Notes: generated from the sequence alone by a model not told the origin. Counted from the whole stretch's first letter, positions 330 through 36,522 are shown. The stretch: 51,159 nt of DNA, filler included, from Jimgerdemannia flammicorona (GCA_003990765.1; 2 parts of 2 records of this genome joined end to end with filler, not necessarily neighbours in it); one strand, 5' to 3'. Program-made: numbers and translations.

Positions 330-1940
330 AGATGAACCTTGATATCTACTATCCTTAGTTAGACTTCAAAATAGTGAGCATATGTGGTATAAGGAATTCT
401 GATAGAGGGTAGTGGATGAAACTCACTATATTAGAAACCACTAATAGAGAGATAAAGGAGAGATGCCTTGAGACTCAGTAATATAGAGATAAGATAGAGT
501 ATTATTAGGGGACACCCTCCTGGACTTTGATATTGGAGATAGGGTTAAATATCAGAGGGGATTGGGCCAGGATGTTTAGCCTAATGGCCAATAGATGGCA
601 GATATTGGAGAGGAGTGAGACTGGAATTGGGTCTAGAGTGTAGAGGTGAGAAGATAGTTACCACTTAAGTACTAGGTAGTCTGATGGTATATACTATAGA
701 GGAATGTCATACTCAATTTTTACTCAGGCCATCTTATAGAGGGGAGGAGTTTTGACTGTGAGGAGTGTTATAATGTAGGACAGGAAGGGGAGTTTGTGCA
801 GACATCAGAATATTGGCTGAGAGAGTATAAAATACTTAGTGATTTTTGGTTAATAGTTGGGTTTTGCTTGGGTATTGTATATAGAGAGAATACTGAGAGA
901 GATTGATAGGAGGATCTTAAGAACAGATTGGTGGGAGAGATTGGGAAGGAATAACTTACCTTGTATTGAGAATTAGCTATATGGGTAGGGCTAGCAAGTC
1001 ACTAGTTATTTATTTTTAAGAAAGGAAAATATTTGAGTTTAAGAGAGTAGCTGTTAAGGTGAGAAGAGTTGATGGAGAATATTCTGACAGGCTGGTGGCT
1101 GAGATGGGGCCTGTAGGGTAGTCAGTAGTATCAATTGATAGAAAAAATTTGTAGGCGGAGTATGGAGAGAGTTGGGATAGTGGAGGATAGGGTAGTATTC
1201 AAGTATGAGAGTATAGAAGATAGTGCTTCAAATGAGTCAATCTGGATGGGATTTGGATGGATTTGCATCCCATCTGGATGGATTTGAATCAACCATTGTT
1301 TTGATTTTCAAATTAGACAATTAAATGTTTACATCAATAGCTCGATGAATAATTATCTAAATTTGATGATATTGATGTCATTTGAAAGCCCTTAATAAGG
1401 CCTTTCTAATGATACCAAGAACATTAAAATCAGATTATGTGTTGCTAAGATATTAAGGAAAACATTCTATTTGATGAAATTTCCAAAATCAACAAATTGA
1501 AGAATTTCCAAAATCGGCAAATCAGACATTTTTCTTCATAACTCAGCAATGTATAATCTGATTTCAATGTTCTTGGTATCATTAGATAGGCCTTATTAAA
1601 GACTTTCAAATGACACTAAGATCATCAAATTTGGATGATTATTAATCGAGTTATTGATGTAAACATTTAATTGTCTAATTTGGAAATCAAAACAATGGTT
1701 GATTCAAATCCATCTGGATGGGATTCAAATTTCATCTGAGTTGATTCAGATGGGATTCAATCCGAATCAATCCAAATCCAATCCAGATTAAATTGACTCA
1801 TTAGGAGCACTAATAGAAGGAGATCTCTTTAGAGAGATTGGATAGTAGGTTGGGACTCTGTATGTATAGATAATAGAATGGTAATAAATAGTGAAGTCTA
1901 TGGAACTATATAAAAATAAAAAAATAAAATAAAATAATAA
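330..1940 (+). mobile_element. Degenerate LINE (L1/Tx1-like) 3' portion with poly(A) tail, interrupted by a MITE
   Basis: Reverse-complement homologue of ~25670-26700 (shared gacaggctggtggct, gtcactag, attggatagtaggt). Zinc-finger remnant DCEECYNVGQEG. A-rich tail from ~1912. Confidence 0.8.
1221..1812. mobile_element. hAT-family MITE / foldback element
   Basis: 21-bp TIRs tagtgcttcaaatgagtcaat / attgactcattaggagcacta (19/21 match). 8-bp TSD atagaaga (1213-1220) / atagaagg (1813-1820). Internal ~190-bp inverted arms (~1265-1460 vs ~1530-1725). Confidence 0.92.
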
Positions 1941-2831: not shown

Positions 2832-2960
2832 GTGGTAGTCACGCTGCATACGGCGGCGCGTTGGTGCGTCGAGATAATCGGATTCGGCGTAGATGCGAAC
2901 GCGAAGGTTATGGATGGTGGGACGTTGCACTCGATCAGTCAAGCTGCTTCGGGCAGACGG
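2832..2960 (+). pseudogene. Possible ankyrin-repeat fragment
   Basis: TLHTAARWCVEIIGFGVDANAKVMDGGTLHS resembles the ankyrin consensus (LHxAA...GadvNak..GxTxLH) with deletions. No full gene is apparent. Confidence 0.3.
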
Positions 2961-3135
2961 GACTGCCAAAGGCACCCTGTCGTCGAATATACGAACCTTG
3001 TGGAGACAAACGCAACCCTCGGCCCTTCGCAATCTCATTTCGTTCAGGATATTTGTTGAACAATTTATTATCGTATAAAACTAACCAACCGGTAAACATG
3101 GTTAACATATGGTTGCTCCCATGAACTTCCCCTCT

Positions 3136-6100: not shown

Positions 6101-7143
6101 AATGCCAACCTCCTCCTGCCATAAAACTCTATATATTTTACCTTCGCATTCAAGCCTTTCCTCTTCGTATTTATTGTCGCCGTCAGATTCGGAGGGGCTA
6201 CGAGACCGTGAGCGATGCCGTCCTGCGCAAACAAGACATTATGAGCTGTAGCGCACGCTGGCCATACGATATATTGTTGTTCAATTTACTATAGTTATTC
6301 AAACTAGAAGTTGCATAGTGTGCTCGCTTACCATTGGTCTTCCGCTTTTTACGTTGATCTTCATCTGCGACCGACGATCTAGGAGACCGGGAGCGACGAT
6401 GTTCTGAACAAGTACAAAAGAGACAGGAATTATTGTATACACAGACGTGGAGGCCGAGGAGAGCCTAAGCATTCATTTACAGAAAGTAACTTCCGACACA
6501 GAACAAGGTCAAAGTTGAGCTCCAAGCGACGGGTGCCGAAATGAAGCAGAGAAACCGCAATCATCCCATATTGCCGCGTGAACCATTCAGATTGAAACCT
6601 AAAGTTTACCAAGCAGAGATACCGTATCTTGCGGTGGTTGCTGTACAGGGCCTGTTAAAGTCAGACGAGAAAACAAACGCTTGGACTGCTAAGTATGGAA
6701 ATCACGGCGCGAAACATGAGAATCTCGCAGAGAACAGGTCCTTGGGTTCATGATAATATACCTTCAAATTGTTCGATCATAGACGATTTCACGCGCGCTT
6801 TCCTTTTACTCTTGTCTGCTGGAGTTGGTATCTCTTGGCTGTTGGTCATTGTCGTTTTGGAAGTGGCCACCTGGATTTTGAATGGCTGAGATTTCTTCTC
6901 GCCTTTGGGAGTGGACGCCACCCTCGCCCGTGGTTTGGAGGCCTGTATCGCTTCGCCTTTAGTTTTGCTCCTTGTATTGTCTGAAACGTTCGAAGTGGAC
7001 TCAACGCTCGCCGGGGGATTGGAGGTCTGGGATAGGTCTTCGCCTCTGGTTTTGGTCCTTAACTTTGTCGTTCGGTGAGTGGACGTGACGTTCCTCCGTG
7101 GTCTTTGTTCGGCTTTTGCTCGACTTCTTGTTTTCGGTGGCAT
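3136..7143 (-). CDS. AAA-ATPase-like (PF09820-type) + PD-(D/E)XK nuclease protein with disordered microexon N-terminus (paralog A)
   Basis: Exons 7143-6762, 6651-6610, 6403-6332, 6222-6142, 6001-5915, 5763-5689, 5533-5456, 5366-5343 (GC donor), 5201-4849, 4729-4406, 4317-4016, 3877-3136 splice in frame. Motifs VDKS, RPRHFGKS (Walker A), LIDDYD (Walker B), YNPWS, GYLT, IPN, EAFFHG, GRYDI...YLK. Confidence 0.85.
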
Positions 7144-7349
7144 CTTGGGATTTGTGGCTTGAAAGATAGACAGACATAAATACGTCACACGTCAAGCAGG
7201 GGTCGGAACGACGTGTCGAGGTTCTAGACCGTCTCGTCCCGAGTCCCTGAGTCCACGTAGTCTGCTTGACAGTTTGGGTGACGTCAAATGGGGCTGGGAA
7301 AACATACAAGTCCCGCAAGCCCCAGACGTATAATCCCGAAAACCTCAAC
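7144..7349. promoter_or_regulatory. Short bidirectional promoter with CRE/ATF palindrome
   Basis: Only 206 bp separate the divergent ATGs (7143 and 7350). TGACGTCA at 7279-7286 and ACGTCA half-sites at ~7182-7194. Confidence 0.55.
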
Positions 7350-10300
7350 ATGTTAGGAAACAAAAACACCTGGACAAACAACCAGACGGCAAATCCCCAG
7401 ACGAGTGTTGCTTCTACCTCTGGAACTACCGCTGGCGAAGAGACCCAAATTTTCGATTCCGAAATCGAAAGCATTCAGATACCCGAGACGTCGAAACTCC
7501 AGGCAAGCGGAAAAGGCACTGGGAAACAACTTAGAGGTAACTTGCTCAAACCGGACCATTTTGCGACATTCTCAGTTTCGGGGGGTGATAAAGAACGCTG
7601 CCGAGACTTCTGAACTCAACAGCTCAAACATTCTGACTTCAGTAGGCCCTGTACGACGAGTACGCGGGCAAGGTAGTCTCAAACGCTAAGGAGGACTTCG
7701 AAGTTTAATCCAAGTGTTTGACGTGGCAGCGTGGGGGTTTGATGGCATGTCTGTTGCCTGTCGTTAATCCGTATGTCCACTGTCTCATATTACTTATTCT
7801 TGCGCAGGACGTAGACGTAGCCAATCTCTCAGCTCGTTAGGCAGGGACGACGATGGAATTAAGGTAAACAAGCGCAAGATACACGGTGAGCGAACACACA
7901 ATATTTTTAGCGACTCATAGTAAATTTAGCAAATGAAATAAATCTTACAGTAGTATGTCTCATATCAACCGACTTTGGCGGTGTACTAATTTTTATTAAT
8001 TACTTCATCCAACTCTCCACCTGCCTGTGCAGACATGATGAATGAGATGTCAAATGAGCGGCGTCTGTTGGATGGCCAACAAGGTAACGTATTTTGACAT
8101 TTGTCCTTTTGGATTTTGGATCGCAATAACTTTGAAAAATATTATTAGAGGTCAAGTAATTGTTACTCATTGTGTGACTAGAAAGAAAAAAGTCACTGAG
8201 GTTTTGGCAACGTTTTTAACCACAATTCATTACACTTTTGTCCTATATGAACAGGTCCTAGCCAGCAACCTTCCGAGGAAGGGATGGATATGGATGAGGC
8301 GGAACCCGTGCAATATCCAATCTCAGCAGGTGAATAATTTTTTTTGTCATGCACTTTTCATTTTGTGGGCTTGCATCATTTGATTTTGTACTTGTTGGGC
8401 AAATAAATTTTGTTCCCGACAGCATGAACGTCAAAATCGTCATTATTTAAGGAAGAGATGCCATCGTGAAGGATAACATCTGTACTTTGGAACATGCTGT
8501 TGGTTAAATTTATTCTGTTCATCTCATTGTTGTAATCAGAAGACGAGGGTCCTTTCAAGAAGGCGCGCCAAATCTATCTGGAAAGTAACGTGAAGTCCAA
8601 CAGCCAGGGTTAGTACATACCACGCGGTTTCGGTACCTTTTTGACCATAGTTAATATTTCCTTTCCATTGTAACCTTAACAGATGAACAAACAATATTAT
8701 CAGGTACGTTGAATCTTATTTGATTTGGTCTGAGAACAGATTTCAGGGGATGCGTCTGTGATTTGGAAGCTTCACGAACGTGCAACATGTTTACTTTTTC
8801 AACGTTCATCTGACACCTGCACCATCTCCTCCTCAGATTCATCCTCACTTGACTCCCCTTTAGTTATTCCAGGCGGTAGTCTCTACATTGGTTCTTCCGA
8901 CTTCGTTAAGCTGGTCAATCAAAAAGTCATGATTGTTGACAAGTCGATGCTCATTGGCGAGTTCGTTGACATAAATCAAGATGTGTCACTAGTCCTGCGT
9001 CCGCGCCGCTTCGGCAAGTCGACCAACCTATCCATGCTTCGGCTCTTCTTCGAGCGCATCGAGGGCGAGACCGAGAACATGAAACAATCCCGCATGGAAC
9101 TGTTCAATCAGTTTAAGATCATGAAGGAGAGGCCGAAATTGTTCACCGAGGAGTTTGGTAAGTATCCGGTGATTTTTCTGACCCTCAAGGTACGTGGAGA
9201 AGATTGGCCATTATATTTCGTCATTTAGATCGCTTCGTGCGAGAAGGCCTGGAAATTGACGGTATAATTGTTCTTACCCCTCTAAAGGAAATCAAGGGGG
9301 AAACTTGGGAAATTATGGAGAAAAATTTGCAGAGACTCATCGGCAACATCTACCGTATGCACCGCTATCTCTTGCCAACTCTCGAGGTAGAAGAGAGGGA
9401 TGAATTCGGCAAAATCATGAAAATAGACAAGAATTTCCCGCACTTTGAAACAGCCCTCCAGAACCTTTCGAAATATCTGCACCGCCACCACGATAGCAAG
9501 TGCGTCGTCCTGGTTGACGAGTACGACGCGCCAATGGAAGTGGCCTACAACTACGGTTATTACAACAAGGCCTTGGAGTTTCTCGGGATGCTGTTCTCGT
9601 CGTTGCTCAAGGTACTTTGGAAATATGATCTGACCCCATCGTCGCGGTCGATTGTCATATATGTGCTCATTCTCGCCTTACGCCAGGACAACTCCCACCT
9701 TCACAAGGCATTGGTCGTCGGCGTCTTCCGCATCGCCAAAACCGGCTTCCTCTCGGGCTTGAACAATCTCTGTGTCAACTCCATGGCAAGCAGACCGTTC
9801 GCGGACAAGTTTGGCTTCGCTAAGGAAGAAGTTGAACTCCTCCTTCATCGGCATGGCGTCAACAGGCCGATCGACATTGTTCGACTCTGGTACAACGGCT
9901 ACCGGAGCGGAAATCGTCATCACCAGTACGCGCTATTCAACCCTTGGTCGGTTATACACCTCTGTCTCAAGGGAGGGCTGGTACCATACTGGAGCGATAC
10001 AGGTGGGTGTGTATCATGGTTTGCTTTCGTTTCGCCCCAAATCTGCAAAAAGGATGGGGACCCGTCTTGATGTGATTCCATTAACGCTTGTCCCATCTTG
10101 GAACTGTAAAAATATCTCTCTTGCTTTTCTACGTACGGTGCCATTCACGTTGAATTAGAGGGCACATCCAGGATCATGAAACTCCTTCCCGGAACAAGCT
10201 CCAAGTTCAAGAACGACGTGTTGCAGTTAATGTGCAAAAATGCTATTGACGTTACTATTGGAGACAACATCATTTATGAGACCCTCACCACGAATAATGA

Positions 10301-11006
10301 CCACTACATCTGGGTGCTGCTTTGCGATGCTGGATATATCACTCGCAATGACGAAGGAAAACTCATCATACCGAACTACGAATGTTGGATGGAATGGGTC
10401 AAGTGGACTATGCCGAGTCTATGTAACACAAAAACCATCAGCACTTTTTTTTGCGAACTACTGATGATCAAAGGTGACACAGGTGACACCAATGAGATCA
10501 AGCACATCGAGAACATCGAGGGAACATTACAGAATGCGATCAAACAATTTTTGGAGTTCCGTGGTAGCATGCATGGGCTCTCGGAGGGCTTCTACCAAGA
10601 TGTCATTGTCAGCTTGCTGTTCCCCTTCGACCAATATAATGTTCATTCCCAACGAGATGAGGAGAAAGGAGATGAGGAGAAAGGAGATGAGGAGAAAGGA
10701 GATGAGGAGAAAGGAGATGAGGAGAAAGGAGATGAGGAGAAAGAAGAGTTCAGTATCTACATTCTTCCGACGGTGCGTGCTGGATTCCCTGCAGACGGAT
10801 GTGCGATGAAGCTCAAGATGGCTGCCGAAAATGAAACGGTGATCGATGCAAGCGATAGAGCGATATATCAGTTCAGTATGGATAATGACGATTCCAAGTT
10901 TCCGGACAACGTAGTAACTGTGTGGTTATATGCGATTGGATTCAAAGGGGAAGAGGTGCATGTGAGAATGTGGAAAAAAACGCGGAAAGAGGGCGAGGCA
11001 AGCTAA
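7350..11006 (+). CDS. AAA-ATPase-like + degenerate PD-(D/E)XK protein with microexon N-terminus (paralog B)
   Basis: Exons 7350-7536, 7646-7672, 7808-7885, 8033-8083, 8255-8329, 8540-8608, 8683-8703, 8837-9189, 9288-9611, 9687-10002, 10159-11006 splice in frame. Motifs RPRRFGKST, LVDEYD, GVFRIAK..LSGLNN, WYNGY, FNPWS, IPN, SEGFYQ. The first two ATPase introns lie at the same positions as in paralog A. Confidence 0.87.
10654..10743 (+). repeat. Perfect 15-bp coding tandem repeat x6, (DEEKG)n
   Basis: (gagatgaggagaaag)6, in frame within paralog B. Confidence 0.97.
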
Positions 11007-12679: not shown

Positions 12680-13704
12680 ACTTAGTATTTATTAGCTAAT
12701 AATTTAAGATGAATTTCTCACTTTTAAGCTAAATAATAAACAACTACTACTACTCAAATAACTACTTAAACCAAACCAAGACATTTAGATAAGATAGATA
12801 TAAGATCATCAGTATTCTATAGATATATATACTTCAAATAAATCAATTATTATCTTTATTAATAATTTCAAGTAGTATACTACTATAATAACTCTGATAG
12901 CTAGATAACAAGTAGCCCTTATATCCTCCAGTCTCTGAGGCCCTGCAAGAGCAGTATTTACAACTATAATCTATATAGAAAATGATGATGATGCTATATT
13001 AATAGTACAAAAGACCTGACTCCAAGCCACTTACTATATAGATAAAATTAGTGCTCTGAATAAATAGAGTTGATCTGGATGAGATTTGATTCAGGTTCAT
13101 CATGTGATAGATTCGAATTAACTCAGATTGATCCAGATTGATCCATCCAGATTAAAATCTTTGGTGACATCACCCTTTCTTTTGTTCATTTTGCTCTTGT
13201 TTTTTTTTTCCTGCTGCACTTTGGTGACATCACCCTTTCCTTTGTTCCCTCTCTTTTCTTTATTCTTTTTCTTTGTTCTTTTCTGCCGCATTCACTAGCA
13301 AACAAAACAGCAGCCCTTAATTTGTACATTGGTCCAGTTTACTCATTTTTCACCCTGCAATGATCATCAAAAGAGGGAGTATTTGAGGTAGAAACACACT
13401 CTCTGCTGACAATGTTAGATTCTTTCTCATATGGACAGCACACAAGCTGCTCATTGAGAGCCAAAGGGGTGATAGTGGTGGCAATGGCAATGGCAATGGC
13501 AATGGCAATGGCAGGGATAAGGGTGAATTCCAGCAACAACTCACAGCAGTCCTTCAGACCTTGGAATTCACAGACCTCATAGCTATATATGTGGCAGCCT
13601 TTTTGGAGCAGCTGGTAGTAGATGTAGGTTGCTCTTTTCTGCTGCTACTTTTTACTTGTTTAAATTCCCCCAGCACAACCTGATTTACCTTGTGCTCTTC
13701 TTAG

Positions 13705-15417
13705 GGTCTACAGCTTTATGGCAAGATCTGCTGACTTTATTCACAACATCTGGTCAAGATGAAGAAAGGTTGGAGGACATTGCAGGGCATACCTTTGGTG
13801 GCTGAGCTATTGAGTCAATGTATCGCATGGCAGAAGTCTCAAAAGGAACAGAAGTAAGCCTTTGTGAGCAATCTTATGCAACTTGTGCAACTCGTTGGTG
13901 TGCAACTTGTTGGCATGCAGCTCACTCACTCACTCACTCATGCTCTTTTTTTGAAATACCCATCTCTATGTTTTATTTAATTTTATTTTTTATGTGGTCT
14001 CCCCCTAAAAAACACCCACACCCACATGCAACCCATCTGCACACAACTTGTCTGCATGCAACCCATCTGCACACAACCTGTCTACATGCAACCCATCCAC
14101 ACGTAACTCATCCGCATGCAACCCATTCACACACAACCTGTCTGTATACTTATCTCGGTCCCTCAGATCAGGGCTCAGTTCCATTGGAAAGGAGAGTTCA
14201 AAGTTACCCAAGTTCAACCATGTCCAGCATCTGATCAAATAGAGAAATTCAAGGGCAAGATATTTAGCATGAGCAGTACCAGCATTGTCATCAAGGCTTG
14301 GGGGTCTACATTCAAATCAGAGTCAATCATTCTCGACCAAGGGGTCCATTGGCCAGCAGAAGTAACCAATAACGAAAAGAACTATATCTTTATTAATGAA
14401 TATAGAGAGGTGGTTGCGATGGTGGTAAGGAACCTCTATGGCAATGAGCTTCGCTACTACATCAACAAGATTTGTGAGAATTGTGTCAAATACTGGGTAG
14501 TAGGAAAGAGGGGGCAAAAAAAGCAAGGAGGGGGGGTTTGGATGGGAATTGGGTATACTACAATACTGGCAAAGGGTGGGTTCTGGAGTTCCAAATTTCC
14601 CCACACTCATCTCCCCTTTTTTTTTTACTCTACTCTAGATAAATCACACTCTTCACCAATATACTCTTTTTGATATAAATCCAGAGATACATAAGATTCT
14701 GTATCCCTACTGGAACTTTAGAAGTGCTGTCGAAGAGCAAACTGCATGCAAGCACAACATGGCCTGTGCAGCAATGGTGGCTATAATCTGGGGTTCTTTG
14801 AGCAGATTGGTAGAGCATATGGTAGGCCAGCTTAGTAGTGATCTCGGCGTAGCTATATGTACATTCTTGGTGCAATTTAGTATGCCATATAAGGTGAGGA
14901 GCTCCGCTTTTTTGGGGTGCTGCAGCCTGGGGGGTTTCTGTGGCCTGGGGGGTTTCTGCCTCCCTGTATATAAAAAGGACTGACCGGTTGCCATCTATTT
15001 TGACAGATTTCCAAGCCAGGGCTCCTGGGGCTGGACTAAGGGCAGGCATCCACCAGCACAGCCTGGCAGTATAAGGTCCTGGGCCAAGGGTTCACCCAAC
15101 TATATGCTTGCATCACATCAGGATATGTCAGGCACAACCTTTCTCTGCCCACACACACAGACAACAATATCACCCTGGTAATGTTTTACATTCCGGAAAG
15201 AAAGGGCCCAATCTGGAAGGATAGTGGCGGAGTCTGGTATGACCTCACCTATGGTTTCGGGGTCCTGTTTGCAGCCAACATAGCCATTCTCTTCCAACCA
15301 CATGACCACCATGGCACCATTGCCTTTGAGGAGAGCTCAGACACAACAGTTGTCACACTTACAATGGATGATAGGCTCATCAAGGCCTGGGACCAGTGGG
15401 TGGAGCAGTTTTTGTAA
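13705..15417 (+). pseudogene. Spliced TET/JBP-like 2OG-Fe(II) dioxygenase (hAT cargo)
   Basis: Exons 13705-13853 (tentative), 14167-14496, 14639-14893, 15007-15417 join in phase. Product includes NYIFINEYREVVAMVVRNL and HNLSLPTHTDNNITLVMFY...SGGVWYDLTYGFGVLF..IAILFQPHDHHGT (HxD...H). Two stops, both explicable as C>T (CGA>TGA, CAA>TAA). A further exon near 13400-13627 is possible. Confidence 0.62.
14024..14145 (+). repeat. Short intronic tandem repeat (catgcaacccatctgcacacaac-like, ~4-5 copies)
   Basis: Directly visible, inside the intron before exon 14167. Confidence 0.8.
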
Positions 15418-15769
15418 GGGTTAGGCAATCTTTCATAAGAGATAGGCAGTCTTTCATGAGGGTTAGGCAGTCATTTTGTGCAGGTTGGGCAGTCTTATGT
15501 GGGGGATTGGGCTGGGTACCTCTTCTGTAGCACTAGCTTAGCCATTATACAGGGCCCTACCAGCCTCTTGGCCCTACCAGCCCCTTGGCTCTGCTCTGTA
15601 GTGCCACCAGTATGGCACTGCAGTACAGGGCCAGGGTGCCCATAGGACCCAAACTAGCAATGGGGCCCGAATCTGTAGTGGACTCTGACTGCTGGAAATG
15701 CCCTCTGACTACCAGAAGTACCCTCTGACTGCCAGAAGTACCCTCTGACCACCAGAAGCACCCTCCACC

Positions 15770-16420
15770 CCAGACTCCTTGGCAGCTTGGGGCTGCCCCT
15801 GCACCGCTAGTAGAGGGCCACGAATTTTGCACACTCTCTCCACCTGCCCTACCTGTCCTGGACACTTGTGGCTTGGGGCTACCCCTTGCTGCCAGCAGAG
15901 GGCCACAAATTTTGCATGCTCTCTTGCTGACCCTATGCCCACCAATCCTGCTGACTGACCCTGCCCACTGACCCAGGCACTGATAGCTTAGAGCTACCCC
16001 TTGCTGCTAGTGGAGGGCCACAAATTTTGCATGCTCCCTCTGCCTGCCCTGCCCATCCTGGACACTTGTGGCTCAGGGCTGCCCCTTGCTGCCAGCGGAG
16101 GGCCACAAATTTTGCACACTCTCTCTACTGACCCCATGCCCACCAACCCCACTGACTGACCCTATCCACTGACCTGGGCACTGACAGCTTGGGGCTGCCC
16201 CTCACTACTGGCAGAGGGCCACAAGTTTTGCATACTCTCTCTGCCAATCCCCTGACTGGGACACTTGCAGCTTGGGGCTGCCCCTTGCTGCCAGTGGAGG
16301 ACTACAAATTTTGCACACTCCCTCCACTGACCTGCCCACCAACCTGAGCACTGACAGCTTGGGGCTGCTCCTTGCTACTGGTAGAGGGCCACAAACATTG
16401 TGCTCTTCCTCCACTGCCAA
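15770..16420. repeat. GC-rich minisatellite, ~7 diverged units of ~85-110 bp
   Basis: Recurring cttggggctgccccttgctgccagcagagggccacaaattttgcacactc core. Lies between the convergent 3' ends of the dioxygenase and transposase genes. Confidence 0.88.
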
Positions 16421-16571
16421 CTCCACCAACCGCTACCCACTTGAGCCACAAACTCTGGGCCGAGTCCTCAGGGTTTTTTGCCTTTTTTATTATTTTTGAA
16501 AGGTATTAAATATTCCACAAGGCCAACCAACTTATCCACAGACCTGCTGAATTTTAGCAGCCCAAGCCCCA

Positions 16572-19100
16572 CTAAGACTTCAGACACATACATGCCCAGA
16601 TTGTCTCAGTATTCAGTACACACCTCTTTAGGGCAATGAGGTCCACCCCACCTAAGAACACCTGCTCAACAGGAGCACTAGAGACAGAAATCACCAGGTA
16701 GTCCCGAGCTATACCACATAGGCTGGGGAAGTCTATTTGACACAGCTGCATGCCCTGGTGGGTAGAGTGGTAGGTAGAGTGGTGGGTAGAGCAGTGGTTA
16801 GATTGGTGGGTTAAATTGGCCCAATGTCCACCTAACAACTCACCTTCCACCAGTTGAGCACCTCCATGCCCTCCAGCAGGATCATGTGGTTGCTGGCAAG
16901 GTAAATGGTAAATTCGTCTATTGACGGCAGCTCTTCCACTGATGGCTCCCTCTTCCTCTTTCTGCTAAAGTAAATGTAGGACAGAAGAGATCCCTTGGCA
17001 TATTTGTCTGGACTTTGACCAGAACCTTGTGGTGGCATGTAGTTTTTCTGGTACACTTCGATTATGGCTTGCTTGGTTCTCTCAATGAAGTGCTGCTCCC
17101 AGCTCTGATCTTTATGGTATTGTAGCTTTAAGCATAGGTCTAGCACTGTTTGAAGGAGAGGAGAGAGTGAGTTTTTGTGGGGGTTTCTCTGTTTTGGAAG
17201 GGGTAATAGCTATATGCCAACATCAACATACCTGTACTGATTGAGTATATGGTGGTATCTGTTTGGGAGTAGTACTTTCTGAGCTTGCTAAGAGCAACCT
17301 CTACAGCATCTCTCTGATCCGGGCTCAACCATAAATCACTGCAACTCTCCAGTCTGTCCTCGAGCTTGTCCTCTAGCCAGTCAATCAGAAGGTTATATAC
17401 TGATATTGCCAAGCTTATTGTCAGGGTCATTTGTTTGACTATATCCTTTGTACAATCATTGAAACACTGGTAGTTATATGTGGTGAGGTATTGCATTGTA
17501 CAGAGACAGACAAAATGAGTGTGGAGGCTGACAAAATGAGTGTGGAGCCAGAGCAATCACCACTTACTTCCAAAACTCTGACAATATTCCTAAGTATGTC
17601 CCACTTACTTTCACCTAGAACCTCAGCCCATATTTCCTTGTCAGCAGCCACTGTTGAATCTATTGACTTTTTTTGATTTTTTTTTTTTTAAATAAATCTT
17701 CAATCATCCGAAACAAGTTGCTTCAGCCGACCGAAGAAAAAAGGATACATACCACAGCAAACTCTAGTGTATGCTGGATCATTGCAAATATTGAGTTCCA
17801 ACATATACAGACATTCAATATAAGCTCTTTCGAGGCTAAACTGATTGCTCTACACTGTGCAGCAAATTTGTCTTGTTATTGTGGGGACAATCAGACTGAT
17901 ACAACCAGGTTACATAGCTTGAAAATTATACTTAGGGCCCCTCCTCTCTTGGATGTTTTGTCTACATATGTAAGATAGTTCTGAATAGTGAGGTTCAGTA
18001 CATGGGTCTGGTATCATATATGGCAGCTTTCTGCATCAAAGGCCACATTTTTCTATTTGAGGCTAGCTACTAAAACTTTGAAAAATGTTAAGTTATTTGT
18101 AGCATTATCCATTGTAATGGTCAAAATCTGTACTTGAAATATTCAGTCAGCAATTTTATGTGAAAATAAATAACCAATAAAATCTGGTTTGGTTTAGGAC
18201 CTCCCTCAAAATGCTGACCTGATGGCAAGCCCCCCTTTTTTACCTTAGTTGTGATCCCAAGCTCCCAGATATAACTAATAAAAGCATCTGCAATGTTGTC
18301 TCCAGAATGAGGGCCAGCAAGTTTAACAAAGTCAAAGGTGAGAGATTTAAGCTACCAATTGAGGTCAATCTAATAACTAGTAATGTTCAGAAATGAAATT
18401 ACATTAGGGGATGTCCGTATATTGATCGTAAATGAAATTTTGCCTGCCGAATTCTGCTTATTGAATGTGAGGTTAAATTGGTAAGCTCTTTTATATGTAT
18501 AATTCAGCTTGCAAAGGTCATAGTGCTACTCTTATTTTATCTGAAGTGTCTGGCGGAGATTATCGTGCTCCTTCCTATAGGCCTCCAGGACATCTTTGTA
18601 AATAGTATCAGTACTTGGCAAATATAAATCATGCTTAAGGAGGCCAAAGATGCTATGCAATTGATCACTCTTGATAGTTGTGAATGGCTGGTCTGTACAT
18701 ACAATCCAGCAAATGAGCTGATTTCGAAATTCTGCCGAAGAGTATGGCTAAATATTTTTGATTAAATGGCATTGTTGGTACAGAAATGGTCAGGCAATTG
18801 GATAAACATACCCACTACAGCTTGGATTTAATTTTATTTGTCTCCATGTTCTTTTTGATTTTGTCAGAGTGCTTGTCTTTTATGTGTCGATTCATATTCA
18901 AAGTTGTACCCCCAAGCATTTTGAACTTCTGGCTGGTGCAGTTTATGGGAGTGGATGAAACAATATCATGTATGTATCAAAACAAACAAAAAGTGTCAAT
19001 AGGTGTGTCTTAATTTTTTACCTGCAATAATTACAAATAATATCATCTCCTATCTTATCTTAGCACAATATTGTCAGATTTTGAAGCAAGAATTGCATAG
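16572..19100 (-). pseudogene. hAT transposase (BED finger, DDE core, C-terminal dimerisation domain), intron-containing, disrupted
   Basis: IICNYC...TTLNMNRHIKDKH (BED finger); WIVCTDQPF; GKISFTINIRTSPN; GPHSGDNIA; ITMDNATNN; HVLNL; LDLCLKL; WWK; FPSLCGIARDYLVISVSSAPVEQVF. Confidence 0.9.
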
Positions 19101-19279
19101 AAGGTGTGGAACTATCAGAGATGTTTGACTTAAAGCATCATTGGTACTATGAACTGTTGAAGACTAATCTGTCAATATGTGTATTTGTATGTTTGCATGT
19201 ACATATGAATGCATGTATGTATATTGTATATACATGTGTGTATATTGTGTTGTGGATACATCCGGCATATGAGTTATGT

Positions 19280-19560
19280 GGAGAATTTGGATTGGAGGAT
19301 TTGGTTGAAGGATTTGGATGAGGATTCAGATTGAAGGATTTGAATTGGAGGATTTGAATTAGAGGATTCAAATTGGAGAATTCAGATTGAGTGATTCAGA
19401 TTGAGTGATTTGGATTGAGTAATTTGGATTGAGTGATTCAGATTGAGTGATTCAGATTGAGGTGGTTTGGATGGGTGATTCAGATAGAGTGATTTGGATG
19501 AGGTGATTCAGATTAATCTGAGTTGATTTGGATGACTTCAGATTTGAGATTCGGATCAAA
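19280..19560. repeat. hAT subterminal repeats (gattcagattgagt-like 14-mers)
   Basis: Many tandem copies next to the TIR. Related gatt/ggat motifs occur at 13070-13155 and in the MITE ends. Confidence 0.8.
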
Positions 19561-19625
19561 CTGTCATGTGACGAATTGAATTCGGATTTGATTTGAATTG
19601 ACTCATTCGGAGCACTAAATAAAAT

Positions 19626-22600
19626 CAAGTAAGCTCTGAAAGATCAGCTCAATATAATATACTAAGGAATGAGTGATGATTCAAACATATTTTACACTAG
19701 AATCTGATATCAGATAATCTTTACAGATTATACTAATACTATCTGAGACTAAGTAGCTAAAGTAATCTTTATAAAAAGAGTTCATCCAGAGATAGTCATA
19801 ACTATCTGCTTACTACTAGTAGTCTTAAATCTAATATAGAAGATTATCTATGTTCAGCAATACTAGATAGCCAGATATCTACAAGACTATATAATAGAAA
19901 GAGTTACTAGAGTTAGAATTGAAGTACTTAAGACAATCTACTATAGTGATCAATTGAAATATACCTCAACTAAGAGCTACTGAGTAGCAGAGAAATAGTA
20001 ACTCTATAGAGGAACTAGCTAAGAAATTTGCTAAAATAACTGTCTACTTAAGAGATATAGTAAAGAAAATCAGAAGAAGAAATTGCTATCCAGTTCAGAA
20101 GTTTGCTACTACCTTAGATAAGAAAAGAGATACTTACTATACCTGTTGAGAAGAAGGTCATTACTCATATAGATATATGAGTGAAATCAAGTATAAGACT
20201 CAGTCAAGCAATGTTACTTAAATTAGAGAATAGGCCAATACTATTACTTTTAAAGAAATTAGAGAATTTGATAAAGAAGAATAAAAGACCTACTCTATAC
20301 AGACTACTAAGAAGAATGTTTGTAAGAAACTCTATAAGAGACTACTAGAGAGATCCCAGAAGAACTTAGTAGAGAAACAGATAGAGACTACTATAGAAAG
20401 CCAAGTCAAAGAAATGGATCAAGATATAGAGTTGGAACAGATTGTTCAGAATATCATTCAAGAAACTATCTCAGCCAGTGAAGGAGAAAAAGAAAAAAAG
20501 CTCCACAAAACCAAGATCTTTAAATATAATATCTTTAAGAATCTCAGCTAACAAAAGATCAATACAACCTTTGGCTAGCTGGCAGAAATTTCCACATTCA
20601 AATAGTAAATGAGATATAGACTTACTAAGATAACTAAGAAGCAAGTTGAAAGATAATCAAGACTAATAATATTTAAGAAGACTTAGAAGAGAAAAGTAAA
20701 GACAATTGCAAGACCTCTACCTATATAATCTGTTAAATCAAAAATAGAATCTTTGAGACCATTATTGATACTAGAGCTAGAGGATATCTCCTTGGTAAGA
20801 AAGTAGCAGATTGCCTAGGTTGGGAGGTCAAAGAAGTAATCAAGTTAGTATTTATTATTATAGATAATATAAGAGCCACACCTCTGAAAAAGATCCGAGA
20901 TATTCCCATTAAGTTTAGAGAAGCAACCATCTCAGTAAATATAATCATAATCAATACAACTAACTATGACATCCTTATTGACAGCCAGTGGCTTCATAAA
21001 GTCAGAGCAATAATTGACCTAAATATGCAGAAGATACAGATCATCTACTAAGGACAGAAGATGAGAATTCCTATCAATATTAATAAAGAAGTACTCTCTG
21101 AAATAGAGGAAGAAGAAAGTGAGTAAGAAAAAGTCTACATATTGACTATTTAGAAAAAGAAGAAGAAAGTTAGATAGATAAGTGAAGAAGAATAGTACAA
21201 AAGAATTATTAAAGAATATATACTATAAGGAGTCTGTCTTCATAGAATTAAGATATACTATATAGAGCATATCAATGATTGCTACCAGTATATCAGTGAA
21301 ATTAAGAAGTTCTATTATGAAAGAAGACAGAAGATTCTTGAGAAACAAGCAAGAGAAGAAAAGAAGAAGAAGAGGATGATGAATTACTGGCCCTTCTAGA
21401 AGATAGTGATGATGAAGAAAATATCAAGATCAAGTTTTAAAAGATTTATTTTAATATAGTTCTACCAGAATATAAATCAGAAAATGCAGTTGAAATAGAT
21501 ATTACTATAGTAGAAAAAACTATACTAGAACTCCAGATAACTACCCTACTCATAACTAGTTTAGAGATGACTATTCTAAAAGACTATATCAGGATTCTCA
21601 AGATAAGAAGCAGCTTGACTAAAAGTGAGATTACTATTAAAGAAGGAGTCATTAATTCAGATTACATATATTGAAGAAATACTACTCATTGCTAGAAATC
21701 ACAATTCTACAATTTCATTCCCAATTAAGAAGAAGGACTGACTGGTACAGATGATGATCTTCTTAGTCCTATAGCCAAAGATTATAGAAGTCAAGAAATT
21801 AGAGAAAATAAAGAGAGAAATGAAAGAATTTGAATCTACTGAAAGAGGAGTATTTGCTAGTACCAAAATCACTGAACTAGATCACAAAAAGAAGAAAAGC
21901 ACAAGTAAGCACAGCTATATTATTAGAAATGAATTCTTACTCAAGAAAGAACTCAAGAAGATATTCTATAAATTTGAGAATGTTCTGACTACAAATTTTA
22001 AAGATATTAAAGAAAAGACACCACACTACTACTATAATATAGATATAGGAGATACCAAACCAATCTATCAAAAAGCAAGACCAATTCCACCAGCCTACCA
22101 TAAATAGCTTAGAGAAGAAATTAAGCAAATAAAAGAAGCTAGTATTATTAAAGAAGCCAGTTGTTCTTAGGTTTTATCAGTCATACTAGCTTTAAAGAAA
22201 GAAAGCAAGTTAGGAGAATTTGCTCCAAGACTCTCACTGATTACAAAAAGCTCAACATATTTATCAAAAAGAATCACTAACTACTGCCTCTTATCAGCAA
22301 TATCCTTATAACTCTAGGAGACAAAGTATAGTATTATAGTACCTTGAACTTATATTTAGGATTCTATCAAATTGGTCTCACAGAAGTAGTAAGTAAAAAG
22401 TCAGCTTTCATCACTCTAGATAAAACCTATGTCTATCTGCAAATACTATTTAGAATATATAATATACTAGTAAGTTTCCAATAAATAATGATCAAAATAT
22501 TCTACTATAATATAGAAAGATGAATGATGGTTTATGTGGATGATATTACTATCTACAGCAAGATACCAGAAGAATATCTACAGTATATCCAGCAGATGAT

Positions 22601-24300
22601 AAAGAAGCTAAGAAAGCATAGTCTATATATTAAGTCTAAGAAGTATAAGTTTGCAGAAATTGAGATCTCCTACTTAGGCCACATTATCAACTGAGATAGA
22701 ACATATACAGACCCTCTCAAGATATAAGCAGTAGTAGCATATCCAAGACCCACAACTGTCACTAAAGCCCAAGCCTTCATGAGACTCACTTCATACTACT
22801 ATAGATTTATCAAAAAATTCTCCAATATCACAGATCCAATCTATAAACTTAATGAGGAGAATATCAAGTTCCAATAGACTAGCAGGTAACAAAAAGTATT
22901 TAATGAGCTCAAGATTAGACTGACTCAAGCACTCATTCTTAGAAGACCCAATTAGACTCAAGAATTCATCCTACAGATAGATACTAATATATAAGAACTA
23001 AGAGCAGTTCTGGTCTAGAAGAAAGATAAAGTAGAGTATATCATTATATATCTCAGTTGAGGAATCTGAGAAGTTGAAAAAGAATATGAATCCTATAAGT
23101 TAGAATATCTTGCAGTCATCTAGACTATAGAAAAGTTCCACTACTATCTCACTAAAAGACACTTTACTATCCAGACAGACTATTTAGCTCTTACTTAGCT
23201 ACTGACTACTAGATAACCCAAAGGAATTTATATTAGATAGATTATAAAGTTGCAAGTCTGTAATGTAATATACTACTCTGGAAGAACTAACATTAATATG
23301 GATGTCTTTTCATAGATATTTGGAAGAACTCTCAACCAATAAACCAATCATAAATAAGGAGCTCTACTATAGAATTATTATCTATCTGAGATAGTGAAAG
23401 ATGCTCTAATATCTAAAAGAATGAATGCAAATAATTATCAATAGAATATAGAAATAATTCAAAACTAATAAAGAAATATTAAAGAAAGAAAAACTACTAG
23501 TTATATCTAAATATAAGAAAGAGTAAGTAATGAAATCAGTATATAAACTTGACTATCTAGGAGGAACAAATATCTATGATAAGATAAGAAGAACAATATA
23601 GTGACCAGGAATAGAGAAAGACATTAGACAATTTGTCAAAACCTACAATAAATACCAAAAATAGAAATAAGAGCAATAAAATTAGATCCCAGAATTAGTA
23701 TATATACACAGAACTAGTATCCTTTATCCATATAGCAATAGATATAATCAGCTCTCTATCCTTAACTTTGACTAGTAACTAATATATCATTATTATTATA
23801 GACCTTTTTACAAAATAGATAGAAGCAGAATACCTCAAAGAAGTCAATATACAGTTAATTACTGATTTCTTCTATAAAGAAATTATCTGCTAATTCAAGA
23901 CTCCAACATAAGTAACTACAGATAGAGAAATAGAATTTATAAATCAATTCTTTGAGGTTCTCTATCAGTATAAGATCTAGTATATTTAGACTATAGTCTA
24001 TTACTCTTAGAGAAATAGATAAGTAGGAAGAATAAATAAGACTCTTAAGAATATTATTGCTAAGATCTATGATAACTATAAAAACTAGGACTACTATCTG
24101 CTAATAGCATTATCTGCTCTCTAGGATATCTGATCATAAAGTATCTATTTTACCTCTTGGGAGATACTATTCAGAGAAGAAAGTTTATAAAAAACTCTAT
24201 TATTTAATAGAGATACTATATGGAAATATATAGATATAGAGATATAGAGACTATACCAAATCAGAAAAAAGACCAAGAATTATATAACTAAGATATGTAG
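19626..24300 (+). pseudogene. gag (rest)-protease-RT-RNaseH-integrase of gypsy element 1
   Basis: Remnants include a decayed zinc knuckle (~20135-20180), protease IIDT (20761), RT VYVDD (~22530), RNase H and integrase TTDR. Many TAG/TAA stops at Trp/Gln positions. Confidence 0.85.
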
Positions 24301-24669
24301 TACAGATACACTTATTCTGAATTTTGTATTTTAAGGTCTATCAGAACTAGATCAAGTTTCAAAAATACTTCAAGTTGAGATAGTTACTAAATTCACAGCT
24401 AGAGATGGGAAAGAAAGACTGAATCAGAGAGTGCTAGCTCTTTCACACTCAGATCATTATTGTTAAATAAGTGAACAAGTTATATAAAGATAATGAGTCA
24501 GTCTTACCTCACTCCTGAGGAGTAATCTTAAGAGACTTTAGACATATTAAGAGATACTATTGAGAGAACATAATAATATAAATTATATAGTATAAGAAGA
24601 TACAACTTGTAGAAGCTTGGGCATTTGAATAGGATATTTCAGAGATAAATTACTTATTTAGGAGAAAAT

Positions 24670-25123
24670 TGTGATAGTCAATCTAAATTAGAAATATAAA
24701 TTAAAGAAATAGATATTTATTCAAGTATCTGAATCTGATTTCTAAATATAATATAGTCTTATAAATAGCAGTTATTTCATAAATATAAAAACTTCAATAA
24801 ATGTTAAAATTTTATAAATGTTAAGATTTCACAAATATCAAGAATCTACACTTATGAAAAATAACTTATAGAAAACATAGTTATAACTTAGTCACCTTAT
24901 AGCTAGCAAACTTGTATAAATATCTCAGTATTTAGAGTGAATAAATCTCAGATCAAAATAGTTCAAAATAAAGAGAAAATAAGAGAACTAATAAGTCTAT
25001 AGGTAGATATACTTCAAATCTACCTACTTCTATATTCTGAGAACTCTACAGAGTTAAAGAAGACAAGTTTTCAAGATACAGAAATCTTATATACTAATAT
25101 AATTATACATCTACTATATTATA
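24670..25123 (+). repeat. 3' LTR of gypsy element 1
   Basis: Starts TGTGATAG after the purine tract ttaggagaaaa. Matches 12199-12679. Confidence 0.88.
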
Positions 25124-25533
25124 TTATTTATTATATAATAATAATTATAATAAATTCTTTTATTTATTTTATTATTTTATTATAGTAAAATAAAATTAAA
25201 TATAATTCTATTAACTTTTAATTAAAATCAAAAAGTTATATTAGTAATATAATAATTTTAAATATTACAATTAGATAATATTATATTATATATATATTTT
25301 TTTTTAACTTTTTATTTTTATTTTTATTTTTAGACTTTTATTTATTTATTTATTTATTTTTTATAATATTTTAATATATTCTGAATATATAAAAATATTT
25401 TTTAATACTAAAACTTTACTAGAATATTTTTGTCTTTTTTTTTTTTTTTTTTTTTTTAATTTTTTTTTTTTTTTTTTTTATTTTTTTTATATTTTTTTTA
25501 AATTTTTTTTTTTTTTTTTTTAAATTTTTTTTT

Positions 25534-25632
25534 NNNNNNNNNNNNNNNNNNNNNNNNNNNNNNNNNNNNNNNNNNNNTTAATTAATTAANNNNNNNNNNN
25601 NNNNNNNNNNNNNNNNNNNNNNNNNNNNNNNN
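25534..25632. other. Assembly gap containing the artificial six-frame-stop linker TTAATTAATTAA (25578-25589)
   Basis: N-runs either side of TTAATTAATTAA. Confidence 0.95.
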
Positions 25633-25637
25633 NTTTT

Positions 25638-25672
<35 letters not shown>

Positions 25673-27976
25673 GTTACTTGGACTCTATCTTTATTACAGT
25701 CTATGAATAAGTATACAATATTACCACCTACTATCCAATTCCCATAGGGGGGCCCCTCCCCACCTCTTCATGGATAAAGACCACCCTCTCACTAATGACT
25801 CTAACTCTCCCACCACTCTGACCACAAATTTTCTCCACTAAGTGGTACCTTCGACCCCTCTGCAGCCCCCAACCAAGCCACCAGCCTGTCAAGGTGTCCT
25901 CCATAAGGTACTGCCACCATGATAACTGGCTCCCCAAGCTCTGTCATCTCTCCTCCTCAAAAACAAATAGCTAGTGACTGGCTAGCCTAACCCAAATAGC
26001 AAATGCCCAGCCTAAGGTAATCCACTCCACCTCTACCCCTCCTACCAATTGATCCCTCAGGTCCTCCCACCTCTACCCCTTCTACCAATCGATCCCTCAG
26101 GTCCTCCCACCTCTCCCATACATCATCTCCCCTACGTCTCACCCCCAAGTGGTCCCCAATGGCCTGCCAAAAGTCTCCTAACACCTCACACTCTCCTAGC
26201 CAATGTTCTGGCATCTGTACAAATCCCCCTTCCTGCCCTACATTATGGCACTCCTTACAGTCAAAGCAACCTCCCATGATAAGGTGTCCTGAGTGGAAGT
26301 TGAGCATCACATTCCTCCTTAGTATATGCCACCAGACCACCCAGTACTTCAGCAGCATCCATTTTTTCACTCTGGCACTCTAGGTCCAAACACCATGCTA
26401 GTCCCACTCCTCTCCAATTCCAACTCCTTGCCAACCACTAGGCCACAGATCCTGGCCCAGTCCCCTTTGGTATTCAACTCTATCACCAATGTCAAATTCA
26501 AGCAAAGGTATGCTGCCCAGAAGAATGCCATCCTATCTCTACATTGCTGGGTCCCAAGCCCTCTCTCCCTCATTCCCTTGCCAGTGAATACCAATGCGGT
26601 GTGCCCCCTCTGCTATCCCCCACCAGAAACCTTTATATCACAATTGTGCAGTATTCGGAAGTCCAACTAATGAGAGAAGATCACCAGTCGAGCCTCTTGG
26701 TGATGACTGCCTCTCCCAGACCTTCTGCAGCAGGGGAACCCAACCCCCTTCCTGCAACTCCACCACCCTCTTAAGCCACTATGCCCTCAAGTAGTGTAGT
26801 CATTTGGGAAAGTCCACCAGCTCAAGACCACCTCTCACTACCAGTAGGGACAAGATCTCTCAACTGATCTGACTCCATCTGCCAGCCCAAATCCATCCCT
26901 TGGCCACCTTCACCAATCTCTTCACTACCCAGGCTGGGAAGTCCAGATGATAAGCCAAATACCACAGCTTCGGCAGCCAGTATACATTCAAAATCGAGAT
27001 CCTTCCTGCCAGAGAAAAGTGTCTTCCCCCCCAACCCCGCAGGTCCTCCTCCCAAATTCCAACTCACTGCTCCCACTATAGTCTGGGCAGAACAGACCCA
27101 TAGACTGACAAATAGATGCCCAAGTACTGCACTACCTCACTGGTGGGGACAATTGTTCCAATAACTTCTCCTCCCACCAGGCTATTGCTCAGCACCATTG
27201 TTTCACACTTGTACCAATTCAGCTTTGCCCCAGAGTACTCCTCATACCACTCCACTGTCTTCTTGAGCTCCTTAACATCAGCAATCACTCCCAAACCAAC
27301 CACCATATCATCAGCAAAGGCTCCAACTTTTTAGCCAATGCTATAGATAGAGAGCCTCACTATCCTCTGCCGAATTCTGTCTATTAGGAGTTCCAAGGAA
27401 AGAATATACAAAATGGGGGACAGTGGGTCCCCCTGGGGCACCCCCCTATCCAGAGGGAATGCTACCCCTCTATGCCCATTACACATGAGCACAGCCCTAC
27501 TCCCTTCCAGTAGGCTGACCATTGCTGACCGAAATTGGACTGGAACTCCAATTCTATCTAATACTTTCACCAGCCAGACTCATCGCACCCAGTCATAAGC
27601 CTTCTCCTAGTCCAAGAAGACAAGATGCCCATTCAGTCCACAGGCTCTAGTACCTTCAATAACTCCATATACCCAGGCTGTGCTATCTCTAATAAGCCGA
27701 CCTCCTATAAAGCCCCTCTGCTCAACACCTACAATTTGCTGGGCTACCTTCTGTAGCCTTGTGACCACCACCTTAGTCACCAACTTTCTGTCCATATCTA
27801 GCAACATTATCGGCTGCCAGTTCTTCCAATCCTCTTGCCTTCCTTTGTTCTTATAAAGTAGCATCACCAGCCCAAGATCCTGCTTCCCCACTCATCTCCC
27901 TGACTGCAATATAAAGTCACACAGTGCTGTCAACTCCCCCAACATGCCTGGGACTCCAACCATTCGCTTCCAGAAG
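25633..27976 (-). mobile_element. LINE (L1/Tx1-like) RT to 3' end with poly(A), truncated at an LTR
   Basis: KNWQPIMLLDMDRKLVTK, EQRGFIGGR, LD*EKAYD, RGVPQGDPLSPILY, AFADD, YLGI, C-terminal CxxC...EHWLGEC. Poly(T) on the plus strand at 25633-25669. Confidence 0.92.
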
Positions 27977-30012: not shown

Positions 30013-30449
30013 ACTCTCCCCTTCTTAGCTTTCGACGTCCTCATCAGGGTCTTCTAATTTGTTCTAGTATTGTTACACCGTTTGGGAGGTCAAAAGTCTG
30101 GTAAGGTCCATTTTCTCAGAAAGTGGCATGCTCATAGTACAGTTGCCTAACACGTTGGATTCATATGTTAAAGGGTCATATGTTTAATGCCGTGCGCTGG
30201 AAGTGATTCTGACGTCATTCACTGCTGGAGAATTTCCTCTAAGGAATCTTCTTAAATGTCTATGCCTTGTTTCCCACCAGTGGTACAGGGAGAATAGGCT
30301 TACTTTTAGTTTTGCTATTTTTCCAGGGATTCAGTATTCTTATCTTGTTTTGCTGAGTTCTTGACTTGGTTTGTGATAGTTATAATGTTCAGGAGAATAA
30401 TATATAGTATGTACAGATAGGTGTGGAATATTTGGTTCTAGTTGTTCAA

Positions 30450-31840: not shown

Positions 31841-31841
31841 C

Positions 31842-36518: not shown

Positions 36519-36522
36519 AAGT

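Follow-up and report, generated by a model that had tools for sequence, protein, structure and literature searches.

Background

If mobile DNA of eukaryotes has a counter-defence against silencing by cytosine methylation, TET-like enzymes encoded by transposons are its clearest candidates. In the accessible text of Kojima (2025; Biology 14:1741, PMC12730594) TET/JBP genes are reported from 11 lineages of DNA transposons, hAT included, and 20 'hAT7' families from six Puccinia species carry such genes. The proteins were sorted into PU, AG and PE types and a role in countering methylation-based silencing was proposed; according to the same text, fungal TET/JBP genes are known from DNA transposons of genomes with CpG methylation. 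Here we describe a hAT element at positions 13049-19617 of a stretch of 51,159 nucleotides from the genome of Jimgerdemannia flammicorona (GCA_003990765.1; two parts of two records joined with filler), hereafter the window, and a second gene which this element carries beside its transposase and which may encode a further enzyme of this kind.

Of the three protein types, PE has HxE as its stated hallmark. Its HHpred match to CMD1 reached only an E-value of 1.4, and its AlphaFold DB models were significantly similar to CMD1, NgTET and CcTET (PMC12730594). According to that article, the transposon-borne PU and PE types are biochemically uncharacterized, and non-canonical activities were left open. 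The binding of the co-substrate was described by Li et al. (2021; PMC7854593), of which the relevant passages state that R1261 and R1896 of TET2 and R224 and R289 of NgTET1 hold both carboxylates of 2-oxoglutarate (2OG) and that enzymes using 2OG conserve them strictly. In CMD1, 2OG is not used because no basic residue stabilizes the C5 carboxylate.

The locus is, in a reading we consider reasonably probable from sequence comparison and structural models, a dead copy of an autonomous hAT with a four-exon passenger gene for a protein of about 372 amino acids (aa), which would belong to a small, unlisted subfamily of TET/JBP-like 2OG-Fe(II) dioxygenases and by eye stands closest to the PE type. 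The initial annotation of this DNA had assigned fungal TET/JBP genes mainly to Kyakuja-Dileera-Zisupton elements and not to hAT. That premise of novelty fails because the accessible text of PMC12730594 already gives both TET genes on hAT elements and the anti-silencing proposal; a full-text literature search combining JBP, hAT, transposase, dioxygenase and fungi returned nothing besides this article. A TET-like gene on a hAT is mostly pre-empted as a finding, a further example of a combination described in fungi in 2025 rather than a new principle. As far as checked, what appears new is a PE-like HxD subfamily without an evident 2OG-binding arginine, absent from the published catalogue, located on a different hAT lineage and with relatives in a second lineage of low G+C content. 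The locus thus widens the known spread of the association between TET genes and transposons.

Results

Passenger gene

The passenger gene lies on the plus strand and converges with the transposase on the minus strand. The four-exon model comprises 1119 nt or 372 codons, stays in frame, has GT..AG borders at all introns and contains one internal TAA. It was aligned with a database protein of 374 aa (P0003) over 314 residues, 87 of them identical, covering residues 7-337 of P0003; the alignment score was 303, against 221 for the three-exon model of the initial annotation. Single open reading frames (ORFs) were also matched by BLASTP: ORF 14107-14673 to P0003 residues 92-167 (E 3e-12) and ORF 14639-14983 to residues 168-227 (E 1e-4). 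The break between exons B and C coincides with P0003 residue 167, and the same protein position is broken in two metagenome contigs, L001 and L002. In the last exon, the codons of an HTD motif are located at 15154-15162, the codon of a distal histidine at 15310-15312 and the in-frame TAA at 15037-15039. On these comparisons, the passenger gene is to be regarded as real.

The borders of the gene were revised in two respects. A second, spliced gene convergent with the transposase had been annotated, and its position on the plus strand, its in-frame exons and its collinearity with P0003 bear this out. The last exon is translated exactly as it had been quoted, including an HTD upstream of the ATG at 15181. 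All three annotated exons have AG..GT borders, but the first intron had been misplaced at 14497-14638: the open frame homologous to P0003 continues to about 14575, and therefore the intron is 14576-14684. Instead of two premature stops there is a single one in either gene model. Exon A was added and may tentatively be counted to the gene; its region had no BLASTP match to upstream ORFs of L001. Candidates for still further 5' exons at 13387-13627 and 13709-13758 did not align with these upstream ORFs either and were discarded. The intron between exons A and B holds a 30-bp tandem repeat in four copies (14025-14144).

Relatives and conserved residues

The peptide of exon D was searched with phmmer against 1.84 billion representative sequences (E ≤ 0.001). 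Seven proteins were obtained with E-values from 1.6e-64 to 6e-8, among them P0001-P0004. The best match, P0001, has 136 aa and 81 % identity to exon D (E 1.6e-64), P0002 has 50 % identity, and P0003 was matched at residues 254-341. A word-based search with P0003 among proteins of near length added P0008 (259 aa) as the sole match, and a word-based search of longer proteins with a profile of the C-terminal part yielded nothing beyond P0008. The two metagenome contigs, 99 % identical to each other and with a G+C content of about 34 %, contain a related gene that is uninterrupted across three tblastn-matched pieces, has HVD and HGT intact and breaks at the same two protein positions as the gene in the window. 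Two other metagenome loci of the four returned (L003 and L004) had matches of 21 residues and were judged chance. Among sequencing runs, no RNA run was listed for the words of this sequence, and one soil-metagenome DNA run contained 7 % of them. Between L001 and L002, 8 of 1026 aligned coding bases differ, and outside the coding part a further 13 sites or so, a count that excludes the misaligned first 20 bases and offers too few sites for a selection test.

The predicted metal-binding residues were conserved in an alignment of 12 rows: H39 in 12/12, D41 in 11/12 and H91 in 11/12. The exceptions were P0004 with HVN, asparagine replacing aspartate, and P0018 with Tyr-Asp in place of His-Gly, both deamination-type changes. 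About six independent lineages are represented, since six of the rows share at least 90 % identity and count as a single one. Lineages that share the break positions and the protein length have only 25-28 % identity in exon D. An arginine, R54, was present in at least 90 % of the rows. The initial annotation had expected HxD...H to be kept among relatives, which is the case, and had allowed for a gene restricted to this single copy, which the database proteins and the metagenome contigs contradict.

Structural leads

For P0001 a model made by another group is present in the ESM Atlas, for a sequence identical letter for letter (predicted template modelling score 0.59, mean predicted local distance difference test, pLDDT, 0.69), and the fold of the passenger protein would be that of this close relative. 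Among the ten structural neighbours listed for it, eight were 2OG-Fe(II) oxygenases by name or Pfam family and none belonged to another family. These neighbours included Tet_JBP (28 % of one cluster), 2OG-FeII_Oxy_3, 2OG-FeII_Oxy_5 and prolyl 4-hydroxylase, with template modelling (TM) scores by query of 0.54-0.63. In the feature search the third match of P0001 was a cluster named 'Tet-like 2OG-Fe(II) oxygenase' with PF20515 in 72 % of its members (score 0.91, 178 shared features), and the top cluster of P0003 was of basidiomycete origin with PF20515 in 15 % of its members (score 0.96). Structure and feature matches of the Atlas rank as leads by the rules of that resource. The best evidence points to a 2OG-Fe(II) oxygenase in the wide sense, and among the named families of this superfamily the Tet-like ones are nearest.

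The two arginines that hold 2OG in canonical TET enzymes were sought in a provisional hand alignment. PU-type proteins show evident counterparts of both in their GWRK and R-L-G-L-S motifs. The position equivalent to GWRK reads GYTT or GYTV, and the second position is occupied by V, H, N or G. That no clear 2OG-binding arginine follows the distal histidine had been suspected from the window alone, and the family alignment has none conserved there.

Element structure, transposase and miniature derivative

The hAT element has 6569 bp and ends in inverted copies of TAGTGCTC(C/T)GAAT (Table 1). An inverted-repeat search returned arms of 14 nt at 13048-13061 and 19605-19618 with 93 % complementarity, and the outermost 20 bases of the two ends, counted by hand, agree at 15 positions. 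The terminus sequence of the family is TAGTGCTCCNAATGAGTCAAT. In the window, a terminal inverted repeat (TIR) pattern, which was built from the two ends of the element itself so that these ends are two of the five sites counted, occurred at 5 sites when three mismatches were allowed; 0.99 sites were expected, and in 0 of 100 shuffles were five reached. The flanks match in 7 of 8 positions with a G/A difference in both insertions, the large element and a miniature one, and this fits an 8-bp target-site duplication (TSD) of hAT type, blurred by the transition decay common across the window. A 7-bp duplication, the kind known from hAT7, was rejected because the exact 7-mers are offset from the termini, to one side in the first copy and to the other side in the second. 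The element had been annotated as a hAT bounded by TIR and TSD at 13049..19617; its termini are exact, its flanks agree to 7/8, and PF05699 is encoded on its minus strand.

Table 1 Positions and features of the hAT element, its passenger gene and its miniature derivative in the window
Feature	Position	Strand	Sequence or structure	Remarks
Miniature non-autonomous element	1221..1812		592 bp; flanks ATAGAAGA, ATAGAAGG	flanks match 7/8; pattern matches 1221 (+), 1812 (-)
Left TSD	13041..13048		GATAAAAT	matches AATAAAAT in 7/8 positions, single difference G/A
Left TIR	13049..13068	+	TAGTGCTCTGAAT...	inverted repeat I8; pattern match with 0 mismatches
Exon A	13759..13853	+	ATG at 13759	AG/GT borders; extends alignment to P0003 residue 7
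Exon B	14172..14575	+	contains NYIFIN..EVVAMVVRN and GGGVWMGIGYTT	AG..GT borders
Exon C	14685..14893	+		AG..GT borders
Exon D, predicted catalytic core	15007..15417	+		natural stop 15415-15417
G+C-rich nested tandem repeats	15418..16431		units ~21, 20, 83-87, 201 bp	Tandem Repeats Finder; G+C fraction 0.53-0.54
hAT transposase remnants	16575..18976	-	at least nine frame pieces	
Right subterminal short repeats	19279..19514		GATTYRGATTGAG-like; 14/28/42-bp periods	Tandem Repeats Finder
Right TIR	19598..19617	-	reverse complement TAGTGCTCCGAATGAGTCAA	
Right TSD	19618..19625		AATAAAAT	

The transposase is broken. PF05699 (Dimer_Tnp_hAT) was found by Pfam in the minus-strand ORF 16572-16964 (E 8.7e-6; 25.9 bits, cutoff 21.4), and the other eight pieces had no Pfam match at E-values up to 0.1. 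By eye the pieces contain what we take to be a BED-finger remnant and hAT blocks resembling D..WTS, DNA.NN, C..H.LNL and RWNS, several of which bear replacements of the G-to-A or C-to-T type. A full-length relative was not obtained in a word-based search of longer proteins with one transposase ORF. With short TIRs and a C-terminal dimerization domain the element belongs to the hAT superfamily. Where the two genes converge, the gap that separates their 3' ends is occupied by the nested tandem repeats.

The miniature element has ends with 90-92 % identity over 21-25 nt to the right end of the large element; in its interior, roughly 1300-1440 and 1560-1700 form a long inverted structure. The similarity of the termini places it in the same hAT family as a non-autonomous derivative. 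The left terminus of the large element (13049-13068) is diverged from the other three termini past base 13.

The end of contig L001 consists of short GATTTGA-type repeats followed by TTGACTCGTTGGAAGC. In blastn it matched the right subterminal region and terminus of the element in the window with 71 % identity over 90 nt (E 6e-4 in a search space of 15.7 kb). A left hAT end was not found on contig L001, and a search of the L001 terminus with an unbiased 24-nt pattern (up to three mismatches) gave nothing; another terminus pattern that did match had been fitted afterwards and was given no weight. The similarity hints at joint transmission of the passenger gene with hAT ends in a distant lineage. 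Between the intact TET-like gene and the hAT-like end of L001, at 2320-2945, two open frames of 93-94 aa are located. L001 may be a deletion derivative keeping the passenger gene only, because there is no room for a transposase.

CpG depletion and the surrounding window

The observed/expected ratio of CpG in the element was 0.15, together with 1.34 for TpG and 1.41 for CpA, and all four NCG contexts were depleted (0.07-0.23). CpG sites in the element are depleted by about 85 %. The CpG ratio was 0.27 in a neighbouring long terminal repeat (LTR) retroelement with a dUTPase and 0.02-0.10 in A+T-rich stretches; NCG trinucleotides reached 0.8-1.3 in the outer stretches 1-11000 and 43000-51159. Because the transposons are depleted of CpG and the outer stretches are near expectation, the host methylates CpGs in its transposons. 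Compared by eye, exon D and P0001 differ by many replacements of the transition type: V to I, A to T, T to M, P to L and E to K. This copy is an inactive relic: the nonsense codon, the broken transposase and the depletion of CpG leave nothing functional in it now, and the relic state also shows in one diverged terminus. Such a copy is of value for comparison only.

In the window, moderately G+C-rich blocks alternate with very A+T-rich ones in a patchwork. The stretches 19618-26000 and 40000-43000 are very A+T-rich (G+C fraction 0.21-0.32) and have the lowest CpG ratios given above; probably the hAT was inserted here into repeats of much greater age that had decayed completely. The minus strand at about 28000-40000 carries the LTR retroelement with the CpG ratio of 0.27, which is of Gypsy type, has a strong GC skew and encodes reverse transcriptase, RNase H, an aspartyl protease and a dUTPase domain. 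Divergent gene copies with a Predicted AAA-ATPase domain (PF09820) are located at 3136-5328 (minus strand) and 8734-11006 (plus strand), the left copy also with a PD-(D/E)XK nuclease domain (PF08011). Because NCG over 1-11000 is near expectation (0.8-1.1), these genes look like unmethylated host or recently duplicated genes.

Discussion

For intact copies of the element we propose that the passenger protein would bind Fe(II) via its His-x-Asp...His residues, flip 5-methylcytosine out of methylated transposon DNA and oxidize it. Such an oxidation may weaken the silencing of the element by CpG methylation and may slow its decay by deamination. Both the substrate and the advantage for the element are inferred in this scheme.

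A plausible TET/JBP-like passenger, as suggested by the Atlas leads and a hand alignment, has to be weighed against a number of results. Neither Tet_JBP (PF12851) nor PF20515 was found in five ORFs of the window searched against Pfam at E-values up to 1, with two unrelated sub-threshold matches only, and P0001-P0004 matched no Pfam family at E-values up to 10. The PDB sequence search with the exon returned two unrelated SEC13 matches with E-values of about 2 and that with the family profile none, and in PHROGs only unrelated weak matches occurred (E ≥ 0.036). AlphaFold2 models were unusable, with a mean pLDDT of 38.6 for P0003 with 8 rows and of 41.3 for exon D with 12 rows, values that are low because the alignments are shallow; Foldseek on this exon D model returned nothing at E ≤ 0.001. 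With some 100 residues compared, a TM score of 0.6 is too low to tell Tet-like oxygenases from prolyl-hydroxylase-like ones. The two canonical 2OG-binding arginines are not evident, and none is invariant after H91 in the 12-row alignment. The hallmark of the PE type in the accessible text of PMC12730594 is HxE, and in this family 11 of the 12 rows read HTD or HVD, the remaining row HVN; the likeness to the PE type was moreover judged by eye rather than computed. Finally, any protection of the element was not lasting, because the element itself is strongly CpG-decayed. The initial annotation, in calling the protein TET/JBP-like, holds as to the conserved triad and the structure and feature leads and not as to a significant match with Tet_JBP or PF20515, for which the HMMER comparison it had proposed came back empty.

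A passenger protein with a TET fold that does not use 2OG canonically, and that takes another co-substrate (as CMD1 takes vitamin C) or hypermodifies bases, is unlikely in our estimation. It is kept in consideration mainly because both 2OG-binding arginines are not evident: by eye these positions are non-basic in all family members seen, and the metal triad is nevertheless conserved. The strict conservation of the two residues in 2OG users and the lack of a C5-stabilizing residue in CMD1 (available text of PMC7854593) speak in its favour, as does the room left for non-canonical activities of PU and PE types in PMC12730594. However, the residue equivalences come from a hand alignment at about 30 % identity, other conserved basic residues such as R54 could take over, and the PE types also have no obvious C-terminal arginine, yet are treated as probable TETs in the accessible text of PMC12730594. 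A bolder form would be a fourth type of transposon-borne TET-fold enzyme, which has kept the iron triad, has lost both 2OG arginines, is located on hATs of two or more lineages far apart, namely this genome and the organism with 34 % G+C seen only in metagenomes, and uses another co-substrate or makes a new base modification. We regard this as a long shot; if true, it would be a transposon-encoded system for DNA hypermodification in eukaryotes. With the triad kept and the arginines apparently lost, the family is a test case for whether such proteins are true 5-methylcytosine oxidases or have a different chemistry.

The Atlas neighbours could also be taken to indicate a captured generic 2OG-Fe(II) oxygenase, e.g., a prolyl-hydroxylase-like enzyme with a protein or small molecule as substrate and no role on DNA: clusters of prolyl-4-hydroxylase, HIF-prolyl-hydroxylase and 2OG-FeII_Oxy_3/5 have the same TM scores of 0.54-0.63 as the cluster containing Tet_JBP, and no TET model matches by sequence. 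We hold this to be improbable: for P0001 and P0003 alike, a Tet-like PF20515 cluster was the nearest named one by features, the agreement with PE-type TETs in the hand alignment extends through the N-terminal half beyond the common oxygenase core, and fungal TET/JBP genes are known from just such a setting, a DNA transposon in a genome with CpG methylation (PMC12730594). A neutral, decaying fragment or pseudo-enzyme of no benefit to the element would agree with the nonsense codon and the heavy CpG decay of this copy, with the deamination-type lesions at the triad in several relatives (HVN in P0004, YD for HG in P0018) and with a family of only seven matches among the 1.84 billion representatives. 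Against such decay stand the uninterrupted copy of L001 and L002 with its triad intact over the three matched pieces, the two break positions and the protein length kept across lineages with 25-28 % identity in exon D, and the resemblance of the L001 end to the right end of this hAT (71 % over 90 nt, E 6e-4), which suggests a long-term linkage of gene and element; we consider a neutral passenger very doubtful. That there is no gene, and that short ORFs without a Pfam match present the HxD...H pattern by chance in transposon DNA, has a negligible probability and is refuted by database relatives with E-values down to 1.6e-64, by the four-exon collinearity with the 374-aa P0003 and by matching break positions in an independent lineage. 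The TET/JBP-like subfamily near the PE type thus remains the reading we prefer.

Comparison with described systems

The hAT7 elements of Puccinia are likewise hATs with a TET/JBP-like passenger beside the transposase. They differ, as described in the accessible text of PMC12730594, in having 7-bp duplications and starts of CAACGGTGGG or CAGCGATGGG, whereas the element of J. flammicorona has flanks fitting 8 bp (7/8, in two copies) and starts with TAGTGCTC. The GWRK and R-L-G-L-S motifs of the PU-type proteins of hAT7 are absent in this family, and a search for canonical PU-type motifs in all six frames of the window gave one unrelated GG.hW..G match only. For Pucciniomycotina, the rusts, a TCG-specific loss of CpG is cited there; the loss in this element is not specific to TCG. 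By eye, the passenger family is far closer to the PE type than to the PU type carried by hAT7.

CMD1 of Chlamydomonas reinhardtii is a TET homologue with the same HxD...H triad (PMC7854593, available text) and is among the nearest solved structures to the PE and PU types according to PMC12730594. In contrast to the passenger family, CMD1 keeps the alignable Arg244 and Arg410 and is a host gene, not borne by a transposon; its likeness to the passenger is drawn from descriptions of the two proteins rather than from a computed similarity. CcTET and the AG-type TETs of Kyakuja/Zisupton (PF20515, 2OG-FeII_Oxy_6) are likewise fungal and associated with transposons, and PF20515 clusters were the nearest named ones by ESM features. 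However, the HRD..WYD motif of the AG type and its arginine after the distal histidine are unmatched in this family, the carrier transposons differ, and the PF20515 HMM had no match.

Fifteen short peptide motifs of this family were searched in the supplement of PMC12730594, in a check that covered table cells up to 400 characters in length and not the PDF figures. Ten did not occur; five were matched, and the eight passages shown all belonged to other PU, AG or PE proteins. Within the same bounds, TAGTGCTC was present only inside two unrelated Agaricus elements. As far as checked, the element appears not to be among the families listed in that article.

The PE type of PMC12730594 is, by eye, the closest known counterpart. 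Both are borne by DNA transposons and have, by eye, a similar overall length and the same order of blocks: NYIF..E(I/V)V..V.RN, GY(S/T), a hydrophobic helix with W, H-x-acid, Arg, and GG.(F/W)(F/Y)..YG....N....(W/F).P.D.HGT. Compared by hand count with the PE-type protein of Helitron-1_MoIm, the ungapped block GG..YG..AN..P.D.HGT has 11/33 identities in the window and 14/33 in L001, and NYIF..E.V..V.RN has 9/18. The GY(S/T) block and an arginine 13-14 residues past the metal-binding acid are common to this protein and the passenger family. Like the passenger family, the PE type is without an arginine at the C-terminal position corresponding to R1896 of TET2 and is too diverged for ordinary HMM detection. 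If the hand alignment is right, the structural evidence for the PE type would carry over to the passenger family of this hAT.

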